The position numbers and the translations under genes were made by a program. 13,995 nucleotides of DNA from a bacterium (GTDB lineage: Bacteria > Patescibacteriota > Microgenomatia > Daviesbacterales > UBA10151), in NCBI GenBank assembly GCA_021786105.1, contig JAJYNW010000002.1, positions 1 to 13,995 on the forward strand, given 5' to 3'. The notes below the pieces were generated by a model that made no database searches, was not told where the DNA came from, and saw nothing but the letters and a program-made list of their open reading frames with translations. This document shows positions 1,816-11,163 of the stretch, piece after piece (the stretch's first letter is position 1; every line of letters starts with the position of its first letter).

Positions 1816-3198
1816 ATGGCACGAAAAATTATCTTTCCTTCATTACTGGCGACATTTTTCATCGTTATTTTTTCGTTACATTCATTAAACAGGCATTTCA
1901 GTTTTAACTCACATGCTTTTGATTTGGGGATTCACACTCAAACAATATATCTTTATAGCCAAAATCTCACCCCATTCAACACTTTAAAACACATGATGAT
2001 ACTAGCTGACCATTTTAGCCCTATATTTTTACTCCTCTCTCCTATTTATAAACTTTTCCCATCTGCTTCAACGCTCCTTGTCTTACAAGCTGTTTTTGTA
2101 GCTTTAAGCAGCATTCCTATTTATCTTATTGCAGCAGACAAGTTAAAAAATACAATAATAAGTCTATTAATTACCCTATCTTATCTAACTTCTGTAGGAA
2201 TCATTTCTGCAGTAAATTTCGACTTTCATTCAGCGACTATTTCTGTTTTGCCTTTATCATTGGCATTATACTGTTGGTATTTTAGAAGATGGAAGATGTA
2301 TTGGATCATTCTTCTCTTTAGTCTTACTTTTAAAGAAGACGTAACTCTGTTCATCTTAGGATTAGGAATTTTCCAACTTCTCCAAAAAGAAATTAAATTA
2401 GGTTTGTTAACCATATTTTTTGCATTAACCAGCATATATCTCATTAAATTCCAATTAATGCCTTTTCTCTGGAAAGGAGCAGAGTTAGGTTATATATCAT
2501 CATCCATCCTACCGTTAAATTCTCCCCTTGACCTATTCTTATTATTTATCACCCGGCCTTCAATATTTACCGACCAGATTTTCAACTCACCAATAAAAAT
2601 ACAAACCATTGATACCCTTTACCAACAGTTTGCTTTTTTACCGATCTTATCTGTATTTAGCTGGTTAACTGTTTTTCCAGCTTTGTATTTAAGATTCTCT
2701 TTTGCATCTTCTCAATTTTGGACTACAAGCTGGCATTACAATGCTAACTTAACCCCCTTTTTAGCAGTCAGCGCCATTTTTGCACTGGATAAATTTAAAA
2801 TCCCCACTAGAGCAGTAACCATTTTACTAATCTTTTTTCTAGCGACTGGGGGGCTCGCACCAAACGGCATGGTTTGGACAACTATTCAAAACCCCCTCCA
2901 AAATTTTTCAAGGTTTGGGTATATTGAGGATTCCATCAAGGGCGTCCCGTCGTCTGCAGCAGTTTCAGCCCAATCACCTTTAGTTCCTCATCTTGCTAAC
3001 AGAGAAAAAATCTATCTTTTTCCTGAGGTTTACGATGCTGAGTATATAGTTTTAGATACATCTTTAAGCACTTATCCAATAGCTCCGGGAACATTAAAAG
3101 ATTTAATATCTAAGTATAAAAAATCAAAGTACTGGAAGGTCAAAAGCGAAACCAAAAGTTTAATTATTTTCCAAAGGAATAACTTTCAAAAGACTTAA
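1816..3198 (+). CDS. DUF2079-family multi-pass membrane protein (putative GT-C glycosyltransferase)
   Basis: FDLGI, DHFSPI, FDFH, KED and WHY motifs, many TM helices, and a C-terminal VSAQSPLVPHLANRE segment typical of DUF2079. Confidence 0.8.
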   Translation: MARKIIFPSLLATFFIVIFSLHSLNRHFSFNSHAFDLGIHTQTIYLYSQNLTPFNTLKHMMILADHFSPIFLLLSPIYKLFPSASTLLVLQAVFVALSSIPIYLIAADKLKNTIISLLITLSYLTSVGIISAVNFDFHSATISVLPLSLALYCWYFRRWKMYWIILLFSLTFKEDVTLFILGLGIFQLLQKEIKLGLLTIFFALTSIYLIKFQLMPFLWKGAELGYISSSILPLNSPLDLFLLFITRPSIFTDQIFNSPIKIQTIDTLYQQFAFLPILSVFSWLTVFPALYLRFSFASSQFWTTSWHYNANLTPFLAVSAIFALDKFKIPTRAVTILLIFFLATGGLAPNGMVWTTIQNPLQNFSRFGYIEDSIKGVPSSAAVSAQSPLVPHLANREKIYLFPEVYDAEYIVLDTSLSTYPIAPGTLKDLISKYKKSKYWKVKSETKSLIIFQRNNFQKT

Positions 3199-4541
3199 GG
3201 CGTAGTCATTGTGCTCTCAGAATAACGGGTTTCTCTAATAGCAGTAATCTTAACTGCTCCAGGCACCATCACTTCTTTGGAAATTCTCTCCGCAATATCG
3301 TGTACTAATTTCGGCAGCTCATCATCAGGAATTCTTTCCGGAGTCACAATAACTCGAACTTCCCTTCCGGCTTGTACGGCAAATGCTTTTTCTACACCCT
3401 CAAAAGAAGTGGCAATTTTTTCAATATCATCCATCCTTTTAATATAATCTCCCACATTTTCGTGTCTAGCTCCAGGCCTGCCTCCAGATATAGCATCAGC
3501 AATATAAACGATAACTGATTCAACTGCTGAAAATGGTTTATCTTCATGATGCTCAGCAATACAATTAATGACCTTTTCCGGCAAGCCAAATTTCTTAGCT
3601 AGTTGCGCACCTTTCTCAACATGAGTACCTTCTTCGCTTTCAGTAACTACTTTACCAATATCATGCAGCAAGCAACCGAGTCTTACCACATTCACATCTG
3701 CCCCAATTTCTTTAGCTAAAGCTATCCCAATTTGGGTTTCTTCCTGAGTATGCAAAATCAGGTTTTGACCATAAGAATAACGGTATTTAAACCTGCCAAT
3801 AATGTCTATCAATTCAACCGGTAAATTATAAACTCCGACATCGTGACACAGCTTTTCTCCAGCAGTCCTCATCAGCTTATTAATATCTTCTTGAGTTTTT
3901 GCCACAATTTCTTCAATTCTTTGCGGCTGGATTCGACCATCTTCCATCAACCTTTCTAACGACACTTTAGCAATTTCCCGTCTGACCGGATCAAAAGAGG
4001 ATAAAATTAAAGTATCCGGAATCTCGTCATCCATCACCACATCTACCCCAGTTGCTTGTTCAAAAGTCCTGACATTCCGGCCTTCTTTACCAATAATCCG
4101 GCCCTTCATCTCCTCATCCGGCAGTTTCACTTTGGAGGTGGTAAATTCGGAAATATAATCGGTCACACCATGACGCATAGCATCGGCCAAAATTTCTTTG
4201 GCTTTTTCATCAGCGGTCAGTTTTATTTCTTCCTCAGCTTCTTTGATTTTTTTGGAAATTTCCCCGGCTAATTCCTGATCTAAATTATCCAGCAGGATTT
4301 TTTGAGCTTCATCGCGGGACATAGAAGAAACTTTTTCCAGTTTGGAAACCAAGTCTTTACGGACTTTTTCCAATTGCTCCAATTTGTCATCAATTAATTT
4401 TTGTTTTTCGGAAATCTGCCTTTCGCGCTCTTCTAAAATACCCTCTCTTTTGGCAAGCTCTGCTTCTTGTTTGACAAAATCTCCATCAGAAGACGGATTA
4501 GCTGGTTGATTAGGTCTAATAGGTCCAAACGTTCTTTGCAT
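3195..4541 (-). CDS. rny: Ribonuclease Y
   Basis: Coiled coil, KH domain (EMKGRIIGKEGRN), HD domain (LLHDIGK, EHHE, ADAISGGRPGAR), C-terminal QAGREVRV. Confidence 0.97.
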   Translation of the reverse strand: MQRTFGPIRPNQPANPSSDGDFVKQEAELAKREGILEERERQISEKQKLIDDKLEQLEKVRKDLVSKLEKVSSMSRDEAQKILLDNLDQELAGEISKKIKEAEEEIKLTADEKAKEILADAMRHGVTDYISEFTTSKVKLPDEEMKGRIIGKEGRNVRTFEQATGVDVVMDDEIPDTLILSSFDPVRREIAKVSLERLMEDGRIQPQRIEEIVAKTQEDINKLMRTAGEKLCHDVGVYNLPVELIDIIGRFKYRYSYGQNLILHTQEETQIGIALAKEIGADVNVVRLGCLLHDIGKVVTESEEGTHVEKGAQLAKKFGLPEKVINCIAEHHEDKPFSAVESVIVYIADAISGGRPGARHENVGDYIKRMDDIEKIATSFEGVEKAFAVQAGREVRVIVTPERIPDDELPKLVHDIAERISKEVMVPGAVKITAIRETRYSESTMTTP

Positions 4542-4747
4542 AAAATTTTCTTTTGGACTTTTCTGAAAAAACTTTATCTAGTTTAATCTCACGAAAAGTC
4601 CGGTTCTACCTCTTTCTACTATCAAGTATTAAGATTTTAATTCAAAAGAAAGAGCGCCTCGTTAAGAGGCCTGAGGAAAAATTAATTATTAAAAATTTTT
4701 CGAGAATGTAAATTCATTCTTAAAAATACCTCAGATTCTTCTGATCT
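4542..4747 (-). ncRNA. Putative structured 5' leader (cis-regulatory RNA) of rny
   Basis: Four consecutive inverted-repeat stems: 4671-4676/4729-4734 (enclosing 4703-4708/4715-4720), 4656-4660/4666-4670, 4610-4617/4647-4654 and 4555-4563/4593-4601. They lie between a predicted promoter and the rny ATG. Confidence 0.55.
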
Positions 4748-4753
4748 ATGTAT

Positions 4754-4782
4754 AGTTTAACTTATCTACTCTCAAAAATCAA
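4754..4782 (-). promoter_or_regulatory. Sigma70-type promoter for rny, overlapping the recX 3' end
   Basis: TTGATT (4782-4777), 17 nt, TAAACT (4759-4754). Confidence 0.65.
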
Positions 4783-5431
4783 ACATCTTACCAACTATTT
4801 CTTTTACTAAATCAAACTCAAATCCTTTTCTCAGTAAAAATTCAATTGATTTTTGATAGAGCTTTTTGGGGTCTAAGTCTTTCCAATGTTTCATCTTTTT
4901 TTCCAAAGCAAGTCTGGCCAATTCCTCCTCGCTGACGACTGACGACTGACGACTGACGACCTCTTCTATAATTTCTTTATCAATTCCTTTTTGAAAAAGT
5001 TCAGCCTTAATTGCCCTTATCCCTTTTTGTTTGCTTTTTCTTCTGGCTTCTACCCAAGCTTTAGCAAATTCTAAATCATTTAATAACCCCTTTTTCTTTA
5101 AAGCTTCTATTACAACATCAATCACTACCTGGCTTCTTTCTTCTTCTTTCTTCATTCTTAATTCTGCATTCTTAACTCTAAAATAATCTCTAACTTCTTT
5201 TTCTGAATGCTGTCTTAAACTAAACCATCGGTACATTTTTTCCATCAACTTCCCCACCTCTGCCTCAAACAAGATTTTTTCCATATCTTCTGGCGCAATA
5301 ATCTTGCCCACTACCAATCTTCTGTTAACCACCAAATCCTCATCCGCCCCAAAGGCAAATTCTCCATCCAAACACACATTAAATCTTTTGGGATTTTTCT
5401 TTTGAGGTTCTACCGAAGTAACCTTAAGCAT
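4772..5431 (-). CDS. recX: Regulatory protein RecX (long form with N-terminal extension)
   Basis: Directly follows recA (TAA-ATG). N-terminal QKKNPKRFNVCLDGEFAF, then RQHSEKEV, LLNDLEFAKAWV, IKAELFQKGI and FLLRKGF. Confidence 0.93.
   Translation of the reverse strand: MLKVTSVEPQKKNPKRFNVCLDGEFAFGADEDLVVNRRLVVGKIIAPEDMEKILFEAEVGKLMEKMYRWFSLRQHSEKEVRDYFRVKNAELRMKKEEERSQVVIDVVIEALKKKGLLNDLEFAKAWVEARRKSKQKGIRAIKAELFQKGIDKEIIEEVVSRQSSVVSEEELARLALEKKMKHWKDLDPKKLYQKSIEFLLRKGFEFDLVKEIVGKMFDF
4932..4960. repeat. Perfect heptamer tandem repeat (CTGACGA)x4 inside recX
   Basis: ctgacga ctgacga ctgacga ctgacga c; encodes VVSRQSSVVS on the minus strand. Confidence 0.95.
5143..5184. repeat. Degenerate heptamer tandem repeat (6 units) inside recX
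   Basis: cttcttt cttcatt cttaatt ctgcatt cttaact ctaaaat; encodes FRVKNAELRMKKE. Confidence 0.75.
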
Positions 5432-6490
5432 TTAAAGAGTTTCTGCAACTGCGACCTCTTCTTTTCCAACTACAATCTTTTCTTTACCCTCTTTTTGCTT
5501 ACCCCATGCCTCCCTAATTTCTTTTTCTAATCTTTCGGCTTCTTTTTTATTCTCTTTTAGATACACTGCTGCGGCAGCCCTACCCTGACCAATAATTTTA
5601 TCTTCCCATTTAATAAAGGCGCCTGATTTATTCAAAATCCCCAATTCTATCCCAACATCCAGAAGCTCCCCTTCGCGTGAAACCCCGTTTTCATCCATAT
5701 CAAATTCGGCGATTCTAAAAGGGGGTGCCACTTTATTTTTGACAATCTTGACCCGGTGCCGGGAACCCACCACCAAATCCCCGTCTTTAATATTTTCAAT
5801 CTTTCTGATATCCAACCTAACTGAAGCATAAAACTTTAAAGCCAGCCCGCCGGTAGTAGTTTCCGGATTACCAAACATCACACCAATTTTTTGCCGCAGC
5901 TGATTGGTAAAAATTACAATGGTATTAGTATTAGAAACTGCGCCGGTTAATTTTCGCAGAGCTTGGGACATTAACCTAGCTTGCACCCCCATAGAAGAAT
6001 CGCCCATTTCTCCTTCCAATTCCGAACGGGGCACCAATGCCGCCACCGAATCTATAACCATAACATCAATTCCACCGGAACGGATTAAGCTTTCGGCAAT
6101 TTCCAAACCCTGCTCACCGGTATCGGGTTGAGAGATTAGTAGATCGTCTAAATTAACGCCAATTTTTTGTGCCCGTTGCGGATCTAAGGCATGCTCAGCA
6201 TCGATAAAAGCTGCCACTCCGCCTTTTTTCTGAGCCTCAGCAATTACATGCAGACAGACCGTAGTTTTCCCCGAAGCCTCGGGACCATAGATTTCGATAA
6301 TCCGCCCCTTAGGTAAACCGCCCACGCCAAGTGCTAAATCAAGAGCAATCGAGCCAGTGGGAATCACATCTGTCATAAACTTTTCCACCCGCTCACCCAA
6401 CCGCATAATTGAGCCGGCTCCGTATTGTTTTTGAATTTGCGCCATTGCAGCGGAGATTGCTGCTTTTCTAGCATCGCCGTTTTGTGCCAT
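5432..6490 (-). CDS. recA: Recombinase RecA
   Basis: Walker [53 protein letters not shown]; no intein. Start placed at ATG 6490 (MAQNGD) from family length and promoter position. Confidence 0.99.
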
Positions 6491-6497
6491 ATTTACA

Positions 6498-6526
6498 AGA
6501 ATAACCAAATATTTCCCAAAGGTCAA
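6498..6526 (-). promoter_or_regulatory. recA promoter, predicted leaderless transcript
   Basis: TTGACC (6526-6521), 17 nt, TATTCT (6503-6498), 7 nt, ATG. Confidence 0.75.
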
Positions 6527-6651
6527 GACCCAAAATAGCTTTATTTGGTCGACCAAGAGCAACCAGAACTTAAACTATTGTTTGACTTCATTTTATCACA
6601 TCTCAAGCTTGATACAGGGATAGCATTTATTAGATCAGTGGATGATGCAAA

Positions 6652-7581: not shown

Positions 7582-8013
7582 CTAGCTGAACTCTACCTGG
7601 TACTGGTTTAAATCTACTTTTTCCTGAAACTCCACATACTTTGCAATCTCTTGTTCATTAAGTCCAACAGTTGATGAAAAATATCCAGGAGACCAGAATA
7701 CTCCTGATTTTTTATATACTTTATTCAACCATTCAAACCTCTCTCTTATTTTTCTTGAGGAATTTTGTTTGATCTTTCCCACCACTGATGACACATTCAG
7801 TTTGGGTGGAATATCAATGATCAGATGGACATGGTCTACTTGGATATTATATTTGATAATCTCTATCTCTGGATGATACTGGATTATTTCTTCAATACCT
7901 CTTCCAACGTAAGTTTTTACTCCCAGTTTTAATACTTTTCTTCGGTATTTTGGTATCCAGACAATGTGGTATTGATGTTTATATGATCCATGAGCTGATA
8001 ATTTTATCCTCAC
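7582..8013 (-). CDS. tnpA: IS200/IS605 HUH (Y1) transposase
   Basis: YHIVWIPKYRR, HUH motif DHVHL, FWSPGYF, catalytic YxxxQ (YVEFQ). Confidence 0.97.
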   Translation of the reverse strand: MRIKLSAHGSYKHQYHIVWIPKYRRKVLKLGVKTYVGRGIEEIIQYHPEIEIIKYNIQVDHVHLIIDIPPKLNVSSVVGKIKQNSSRKIRERFEWLNKVYKKSGVFWSPGYFSSTVGLNEQEIAKYVEFQEKVDLNQYQVEFS

Positions 8014-8136: not shown

Positions 8137-8208
8137 TCGGGGTGACAGGAATTGAACCTGCTGCTTCACGCACCCCATGCGCGCGGTCTACCGATGACCT
8201 ACACCCCG
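8137..8208 (-). tRNA. tRNA-Pro(GGG), CCA not encoded
   Basis: Cloverleaf: acceptor CGGGGTG/CACCCCG with discriminator A, D stem GGTC/GACC, anticodon stem CGCGC/GCGTG with loop AT-GGG-GT, T arm GCAGG-TTCAATT-CCTGT; followed by CTA. Confidence 0.96.
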
Positions 8209-11015: not shown

Positions 11016-11040
11016 AAAAAAACCTCTCATCAAGAGAGGT
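11016..11040 (-). terminator. Intrinsic terminator forming the riboswitch expression platform
   Basis: ACCTCTC-TTGAT-GAGAGGT followed by TTTTTT, ending 2 nt before the metK ATG. Confidence 0.88.
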
Positions 11041-11043
11041 CCT

Positions 11044-11140
11044 AAGTTTATCCTAAAAAGGACCACATCCCCCGACTATTCGGGGCTGGCACCGATTACT
11101 TTCCGGTTGCCGGGTCGAAACTTCGACCACTCTTAATGTA
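11044..11140 (-). ncRNA. SAM riboswitch, SAM-I/IV-like variant
   Basis: Upstream of metK. P1 TACATT/GATGTG; J1/2 AAGAG; simple P2 GGTCGA/TCGACC; P3 GGCAACCGG/TCGGTGCC with the SAM-I core bulge; P4 CCCCGA/TCGGGG; P5 GTCCT/AGGAT; 3' ACTT can pair with AAGT in the P3 loop. Confidence 0.88.
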
Positions 11141-11163
11141 TTCTCTAGTTAACCACAAACTGA

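Follow-up and report, generated by a model that had tools for sequence, protein, structure and literature searches.

The recX-rny locus and its host genome

The window analysed here is a 13,995-nt stretch of DNA, contig 23 of the genome (1.04 Mb, 40.4% G+C) of an uncultured Patescibacteria lineage, a member of the order Daviesbacterales. Its minus strand carries recA, recX and rny, and the 230-nt spacer separating recX from rny on that strand is the subject of the analysis (Table 1). The product of rny, RNase Y, sets global mRNA lifetimes. To our knowledge, control of this enzyme itself is known solely from Bacillus subtilis, and almost no regulatory RNAs have been described in the bacteria considered here.

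Table 1. Features of the recX-rny region and of the metK leader. Positions are those of the window.
Feature	Position	Strand	Remarks
recA	5432-6562	-	
recX	4772..5431	-	219 aa; stop TGA 4774-4772
-35-like hexamer TTGATT	4777..4782	-	within final recX codons; read from sequence
-10-like hexamer TAAACT	4754..4759	-	17 nt from -35; predicted transcription start near 4747
Element A, rny leader core	4633..4761	-	three-way junction P1/P2-P3/P4; R2 and R1 matches
P1 5′ strand CAGAAGAA	4736..4743	-	pairs with 4650-4643 in MFE structure
P2 5′ strand CUGAGG	4729..4734	-	SD-like; 11 nt ahead of uORF AUG
P3 hairpin AGAAUG/CAUUCU	4703..4720	-	contains uORF AUG
uORF	4682..4717	-	ATG 4717-4715; 11 codons, MNLHSRKIFNN; TAA 4684-4682
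P2 3′ strand CCUCAG	4671..4676	-	
P4 hairpin GCCUC-UUAAC-GAGGC	4656..4670	-	
U-rich tract after P4 (GCUCUUUCUUUUG)	4643..4655	-	last 8 nt form P1 3′ strand
Element B	4540..4623	-	SD-like sequence and hairpin module ending at rny ATG; R3 86.8 bits
Element B SD-like AGAAAGAGGU	4617-4608	-	
Element B stem GGACUUUUC/GAAAAGUCC	4601-4593/4563-4555	-	followed by A-rich spacer and rny ATG
rny	3195..4541	-	RNase Y, 448 aa; domains RNase_Y_N, KH, HD
Stem 1 CTGAGG/CCTCAG	4734-4729/4676-4671	-	around AGAATG 4720-4715/CATTCT 4708-4703
Stem 2 GCCTC/GAGGC	4670-4666/4660-4656	-	
Stem 3 (as first drawn) CTCTTTCT/AGAAAGAG	4654-4647/4617-4610	-	
Stem 4 GGACTTTTC/GAAAAGTCC	4601-4593/4563-4555	-	
metK leader, SAM-I/IV riboswitch	11034-11144	-	RF01725

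The RNase Y encoded in the window has no N-terminal hydrophobic anchor. Across the Daviesbacterales family the protein measures about 445-470 aa and begins MQ[RK][TS]FGP, with an anchor-less N-terminus (L022-L030). The hydrophobic N-terminus is missing from other families of the class too, and in several of these RNase Y opens with a short, possibly amphipathic segment, e.g. MSFLDNLKEIF. The possibility that the spacer is a decayed N-terminal RNase Y coding region was rejected, since the rny frame stays open for just 12 codons upstream and these other families also lack the hydrophobic N-terminus. Elsewhere in the window, the recX coding sequence contains a tandem GTCGTCA repeat at 4920-4975(-) (gtcgtcagtcgtcagtcgtcagtcgtcagc), encoding a short S/V/R/Q-rich run, and an ORF for an IS200/IS605-type Y1 transposase at 7582-8013(-) (PF01797, 114.9 bits) lies beside a tRNA gene at 8137-8208(-). 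In DNA sequencing runs, related strains have 4668-4785 in common and differ to either side of it, which says nothing about expression; one RNA run of the same study gave 0 contigs over 4000-5500.

Several properties of the host genome bear on how a leader might work. It encodes RNase J (549.6 bits, exceeding the cut-off), and no protein reaches the family cut-off for Rho. The 3′ end of its 16S rRNA is a canonical CCUCC tail, and use of Shine-Dalgarno (SD) sequences is low (158 of 798 ORFs, against a background of 12.6%). Terminator-like sites, defined as a hairpin followed by a U-run, occur after 27 of 796 genes and in 31 of 796 control windows within genes. Such sites are not enriched 3′ of ORFs.

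The 231-nt RNA spanning 4760-4530 folds at -56.4 kcal/mol, as compared to -37.8 ± 4.24 kcal/mol in 200 dinucleotide shuffles (z -4.39), none of which is as stable as the native RNA. The original prediction placed four back-to-back stems in this RNA and took them for a single leader. All four are present in the sequence; however, they do not make up one RNA but fall into two unrelated elements, designated A and B. Stem 3 does not correspond to the conserved pairing. In the MFE structure, as well as in relatives, the U-rich stretch 4650-4643 pairs not with AGAAAGAG but with the upstream strand of P1, a conserved helix with which stem 3 would compete. Stem 4, together with the AGAAAGAG strand of stem 3, had been taken as part of the leader; both belong to element B, a dispersed module found ahead of other genes, and the 3′ 100 nt of the spacer lie outside the leader. 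A competing TCAGA/TCTGA hairpin proposed for the 5′ end does exist in the window but is missing from the relatives displayed in the alignments.

Neither element corresponds to a known family. A search of the whole window with Rfam 15 at the gathering threshold returned one tRNA and the SAM-I/IV riboswitch, both outside the spacer. The latter (42.9 bits, gathering score 41.1) bears out the earlier identification of the metK leader as a riboswitch. When region 4450-4850 was searched at E≤10, noise alone was obtained (best hit snR50, 24.7 bits against a gathering score of 45), and at E≤0.1 no match fell on the leaders of 12 relatives or on 4 module loci. A search of a limited literature collection found no paper that connects leader peptides or RNA motifs with Patescibacteria or Daviesbacteria. 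The claim of an undescribed cis-regulatory RNA is upheld for 4633-4761; the spacer as a whole is composite.

A conserved, covarying leader with an embedded reading frame

RNase Y is present in 92 of the 96 genomes of Daviesbacterales, an order consisting of a single family, and the DNA upstream of rny was taken from 88 of these 92. The typical relative has a spacer of 109-131 nt, as opposed to 230 nt in the window. The first 20 spacers, folded singly, all gave the same architecture: a long-range helix (P1), a P2 arm with an inner P3, and a G+C-rich P4. A plain MAFFT alignment of 20 spacers analysed with RNAalifold yielded no structure, the helices being misaligned; a subset of 11 sequences yielded P1, P2 and P4. 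A covariance model built from 11 sequences, R1, detected under strict filters a single match in each of 32 of the 96 genomes, in every case directly adjoining the rny ATG; with the filters off it gave 39 matches at E≤0.005. The model R2, also with filters off, matched 44 of the 88 rny-upstream pieces on the rny strand. In the window, the leader is matched by R2 at 48 bits (E 3.4e-5; L113 153-281, corresponding to 4633-4761) and by R1 at 28.6 bits (E 0.0031). In one relative (L012) the upstream gene is not recX, yet the leader remains with rny.

The helices covary. Pairing percentages are inflated by the fitting of alignments A4 and A5 to the model structure, and the relatives are not independent; read with this in mind, 87.9% of cells are paired in the 39-row alignment against 72.4% when shuffled, and slid partners give 38-62%. 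Double changes affect all 22 pairs and amount to 143 cells versus 43, a level reached by 0 of 500 shuffles. P1 has double changes in 7 of 7 pairs plus 3 further pairs, P4 in 5 of 5 (91.8% paired) and P2 in 4 of 4 (84.4% of cells paired), P3 being the weakest helix among relatives (78.9% paired). From the 44-row R2 alignment (A5) RNAalifold independently recovers P1 and P4, with compensatory changes in 14 of 15 pairs. In P1 the sequence varies by genus, for example GAAGUCU/AGACUUC or GAAAGUUAGGGAU/AUCCCUAACUUUC, and such varied pair types in these two helices, P1 and P4, are hard to explain without a conserved structure. The tttt.t columns of the U-rich tract and the TGAG of P2 are each conserved at 70% or more. 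The covariation check suggested along with the original prediction has come out in its favour, the leader being conserved, structured and covarying.

The promoter proposed ahead of rny, TTGATT-17-TAAACT, is confirmed in the sequence. It scores 8/12 and so goes unlisted in a simple promoter scan, which needs 9/12. Conservation is evident in relatives: 35 of 44 leader matches open, at one aligned position, with a -10-like hexamer (TAAAAT in 21), and a 5-of-6 match to TTGACA lies 16-18 nt 5′ of the -10 in 30 of the 34 leaders scored. These sequences argue for a conserved sigma-70-type promoter of rny's own, buried in the 3′ end of recX, from which a long leader is predicted. P1 begins at about the predicted transcription start, 7 aligned columns past the -10 in the family and 10 nt past it in the window. 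If that start is correct, the RNA would open with a 5′-terminal helix followed closely by an SD-like site, P1 coming first and the SD-like P2 strand next.

In 9 of 83 relatives the gap between recX and rny is just 9-30 nt; here the promoter is kept and the leader is absent, which indicates that the leader has been inserted between the gene and a promoter that is itself conserved. Among upstream regions that are not short, the recX end could be placed in 66, all with a spacer of at least 81 nt; in 8 of 83 it was not located. Four leader-less relatives (L067, L069, L072, L130) have, 16-25 nt before the rny ATG, an ATGAAAG resembling the start of the reading frame described below, followed by GAGG in two cases. 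The motif may be left over from the stretch in which the uORF began. In a further 13 of the 83 upstream regions the spacer is long and agrees with neither the covariance model nor the model-free scan (see below).

Among 151 genomes across the class, R2 matched 4 of the 7 from the Daviesbacterales family (the host genome itself being missed under strict filters), one contig of a genome from another family, G033, and none of the other 142. The G033 match (contig 5, 15258-15529; L172) is a full leader of 91 bits beside an N-terminal fragment of rny with an in-frame TAG. The fragment is of the Daviesbacterales-family type, and the genome's own rny lies on contig 2. Contig 5 may be mis-binned or may hold a transferred, decaying copy of the leader. 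On the genomes compared, element A appears to be specific to rny and to the Daviesbacterales family, save for this one contig, possibly mis-binned. Just before the rny ATG a second hairpin recurs, GUCAUC...GAGAUUCUUCGCUAA.CGCUCAGAAUGAC, followed by 8-12 nt and the start codon, at L117 (G005), L118 (G015), L073 (G081), L112 (G019) and L088 (G072). It may be another portable pre-ATG element.

The most telling feature of element A was overlooked when the leader was first described: a conserved upstream open reading frame (uORF). All 44 aligned leaders have an ATG-led uORF of 10-24 codons, whose ATG in every one lies 2-12 nt past the P2 5′ strand (UGAGG or GAGUGAG). Of 39 rows, 34 have the uORF stop inside the P4 apical loop; the larger alignment gives 37 of 44 (TAA 35, TAG 1, TGA 1). 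In most leaders the stop is 27-34 nt 5′ of the rny ATG. The uORF has 13-16 codons in 33 rows, and in another 4 it has 23-24; since the stop is in the P4 loop at either length, insertions have kept the uORF frame. Between the ATG and the P4 loop, the uORF frame contains 7 stops; the two remaining frames contain 105 and 29. Of the 44 leaders, 7 depart from the stop-in-loop rule, their uORF ending before P4. The window is one of these; its uORF is of a minority type common to G001 and G015 and ends ahead of the P2 3′ strand. Taken together, the 7 exceptions, the 13 long spacers that do not fit and the 9 leader-less relatives indicate that the design is dispensable and variable.

In a scan independent of the covariance models, 53 of 83 upstream regions had a uORF that stops within a hairpin loop; among 2,490 dinucleotide shuffles the share was 8.3%. 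Adding a U-rich tail and P1-like pairing to the requirements left 41 of 83, versus 2.1% of shuffles. An MFE-based search for the same arrangement on 200-nt pieces gave 36 of 83, an undercount due to interference from recX, and the direct stem search was used instead. A strict SD 4-mer precedes the uORF in just 22 of 44 leaders, and no SD was seen within the 7-12 nt from P1 to the rny ATG in the relatives displayed in the alignments. The encoded peptides differ between genera (MNLHSRKIFNN, MDKNFSSMCNSF, MEGINFHLNNLPQSCI). No residue run of the kind that regulatory codons of the trp/his type would give is common to the listed peptides, nor was a conserved arrest peptide of the ermC/cat type found among them.

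A dispersed module ahead of start codons

Element B follows a layout of about 90 nt: an SD-like AGGAGGU comes first, next a 9-bp stem that covaries (UGGAC...GUCC), and AAAA with 4-8 nt more leads up to the ATG. A BLAST-level search for the 3′ 100 nt of the spacer as a repeat in the host genome found only itself; a covariance model then revealed 2 more copies. In relatives, similar sequences (74-78% identity over most of their length) lie directly before the ATG of rpoD, rpsM, rpsD and rpsS. The model R3, built from 11 copies of the module, detects element B in 36 of the family's 96 genomes, the number of copies in a genome reaching 10. It gives 3 matches in the host genome: the copy at rny and, on contig 26 (12960-13122), a back-to-back pair, one member of which abuts nrdR. 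Some copies of the module stand back to back between divergent genes; further loci are L173-L202. The 9-bp stem is 97.7% paired, with double changes in 7 of 9 pairs (47 cells versus 15.7; 0 of 500 shuffles).

The module gave 34 matches at 30 loci, and in 21 of them the match ends 1-7 nt inside the start codon of an ORF at least 70 aa long. Ribosomal proteins or translation factors account for 14 of the 23 downstream proteins tested (S3, S4 twice, S10, S13 twice, S17, S19, L13 twice, L24, IF-3 and EF-Tu twice); the remainder include RpoD, GyrA and FtsA. The module is present at just 2 of the rny loci examined. In the host genome, element B would be a portable module inserted between element A and the rny ATG. 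We also note a possible resemblance to a promoter cassette (TGGAC, 16-17 nt, TAAAT). Should the reading as a portable module be correct, element B would represent a new class of portable, sequence-conserved hairpin module preceding the start codons of ribosomal and other housekeeping genes, and may reveal how these bacteria drive or stabilise expression of ribosomal genes.

Proposed control of rny and comparison with known systems

We lean towards the view that element A is a leader for post-transcriptional control of rny, in which translation of the uORF and folding of the RNA act jointly and RNase Y may feed back. What the sequences show is the conservation, covariation, promoter, uORF and modularity described above; the transcription start, translation of the uORF and each of the regulatory steps that follow are inferred. 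The recX-rny spacer would be the 5′ untranslated leader of an rny mRNA initiated at the promoter in the 3′ end of recX. Its first bases pair with the pyrimidine-rich strand about 95 nt downstream, forming P1 and closing the three-way junction. The uORF starts inside the P2 arm, a few bases past the SD-like P2 5′ strand, and traverses the P2 3′ strand and, in most relatives, also the P4 5′ strand, its stop preceding an rny AUG with no SD of its own. In the folded, ribosome-free leader, the SD of the uORF would be hidden in P2 and the rny start held beside P1. A ribosome translating the uORF would melt P2 and P4 and halt flush against P1. Given the presence of RNase Y and RNase J, the 5′-terminal helix and the ribosome-occupied uORF could serve as 5′ stabiliser and gate. 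With free RNase Y in excess, the AU-rich uORF region would be a likely target, giving a feedback tied to translation status. Nothing in the leader sequence singles out RNase Y as effector; that the leader senses RNase Y we infer by analogy, the B. subtilis rny 5′ UTR providing a precedent.

The main rival reading, and in our judgement an unlikely one, is ribosome-dependent transcription attenuation, with P4 and the U-run acting as an intrinsic terminator. A ribosome following close behind RNA polymerase would, at the P4-loop stop, block the hairpin and allow read-through into rny; without coupled uORF translation, transcription would stop before rny. Such a role would suit the position of the uORF stop in 37 of 44 leaders and the make-up of P4, which is G+C-rich within an A+T-rich leader and followed 1-3 nt later by a run of U4-6; in the window, GCCTC...GAGGC with its T-rich tail is listed as terminator-like by the scan. 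According to PMC4824070, the translating ribosome represses an E. coli terminator almost completely when that terminator lies a few bp past a stop codon. However, P4 stems are short (mostly 5-7 bp), the uORF ends ahead of P4 in the host genome and in 6 other aligned leaders, and no conserved antiterminator pairing was seen by eye in the alignments. The U-run, moreover, is also the P1 3′ strand, so its conservation is explained without termination. What tips the balance towards post-transcriptional control is that terminator-like sites in this genome are no commoner after genes than inside them (27/796 versus 31/796) and that no Rho is found at the cut-off, findings that also weaken the attenuator envisaged in the original prediction.

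A three-way junction with covarying helices, tied to one gene, might also be expected of an RNA that binds a ligand or a protein (riboswitch-like or r-protein-leader-like), the uORF being incidental. This we consider improbable. Outside the helices, the promoter, SD-like strand, ATGAA, stop codon and U-run make up nearly all conserved positions, and for the rest junctions and loops vary in sequence and length; there is no Rfam match; and the frame-specific depletion of stops (7 versus 105 and 29) shows selection on the reading frame. Selection on the frame might in turn reflect a functional micropeptide, for instance a partner of the anchor-less RNase Y, with RNA structure secondary. The frame is kept open in all 44 aligned leaders and often encodes hydrophobic residues such as MKVILGNLILSF. 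However, the peptides, at 10-24 residues, are not conserved between genera and are all too short for a membrane span, and a recurrent P-Q or P-L near their end coincides with the paired CCUC strand, making a functional peptide very improbable. Chance hairpins and short ORFs are frequent in A+T-rich spacers; even so, a functionless spacer that folds by chance can scarcely be entertained, contradicted as it is by the z-score of -4.39, the covariation and shuffle controls and the stop counts by frame.

On a more far-reaching reading of element A, a ribosome ending a meaningless 15-codon uORF in a hairpin loop, halted against the 5′-terminal helix some 30 nt ahead of the SD-less rny start, would decide between translation of rny mRNA and its decay by RNase Y and RNase J, and synthesis of RNase Y would track the translation load of the cell. 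On comparative evidence, this lineage with a genome of about 1 Mb shows a different, putative solution to rny control, made of a covarying three-way junction, an embedded uORF and a stop in a hairpin loop. It offers a concrete, testable case of cis-regulation, and uORFs prove to be maintained despite weak SD use in the genome. The joint reading, in which element A is a new translation-sensing control of the main mRNA-decay nuclease and element B a new class of portable module, is put forward tentatively and is on the whole rather doubtful.

In leader-peptide attenuators of the pyrBI/pyrE type, the ribosome itself blocks the terminator. PMC4824070 and PMC5021804 set out this principle. Element A resembles these systems in having a short leader ORF that runs into a hairpin and U-run just upstream of the gene, with no apparent requirement for peptide sequence. 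It differs in its short hairpin, whose loop contains the stop, and in its U-run, which also serves as one strand of a long-range helix; in addition, the host genome shows no general use of intrinsic terminators.

The closest precedent by gene is rny of B. subtilis. As described in the portion available of PMC10303841, its mRNA has a 164-nt 5′ UTR, and RNase Y together with RNase J1 exerts autoregulation that ribosome occupancy limits. Both are long, AU-rich, structured leaders of the same gene, the B. subtilis one, in the same text, having its own sigma-A-type promoter, and the host genome likewise encodes RNase Y and RNase J. That text describes neither a uORF nor a three-way junction, and reports a very strong SD before rny, whereas element A has a uORF-bearing junction and no SD before rny. 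The E. coli rne 5′ UTR, as far as it is covered there, is also the structured leader of a main decay-initiating endonuclease put to feedback use; in that case the enzyme binds a stem-loop and no uORF is mentioned, and RNase E and RNase Y are unrelated.

In RNase E-less organisms, a masked 5′ terminus and SD or ribosome binding stabilise mRNAs, according to PMC3997798. The same text provides a parallel in ermC/cat translation attenuation and the ermC 5′ stabiliser, where a short leader ORF has its SD near the 5′ end, and the ribosome on this ORF rearranges hairpins further downstream and can protect the mRNA against 5′-to-3′ decay. Element A differs from these in having no conserved arrest peptide, rny has no SD to unmask, and no inducer is known. 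The STAB-SD of cryIIIA and polypurine sequences are 5′ stabilisers with a strong SD-like sequence far from the start codon. Both are cited in PMC3997798. Element B is similar: its SD-like sequence (AGAAAGAGGU or AGAAGGAGGU) is strong, stands far upstream of the start codon beside a stable hairpin, and lacks a start codon of its own; unlike them, the element is multi-copy, conserved in sequence and placed at a constant distance from the ATG in numerous housekeeping genes. As for element A, judged from its sequence it would be at once a regulatory leader with a leader ORF and a structured leader of a decay nuclease, both kinds already known.
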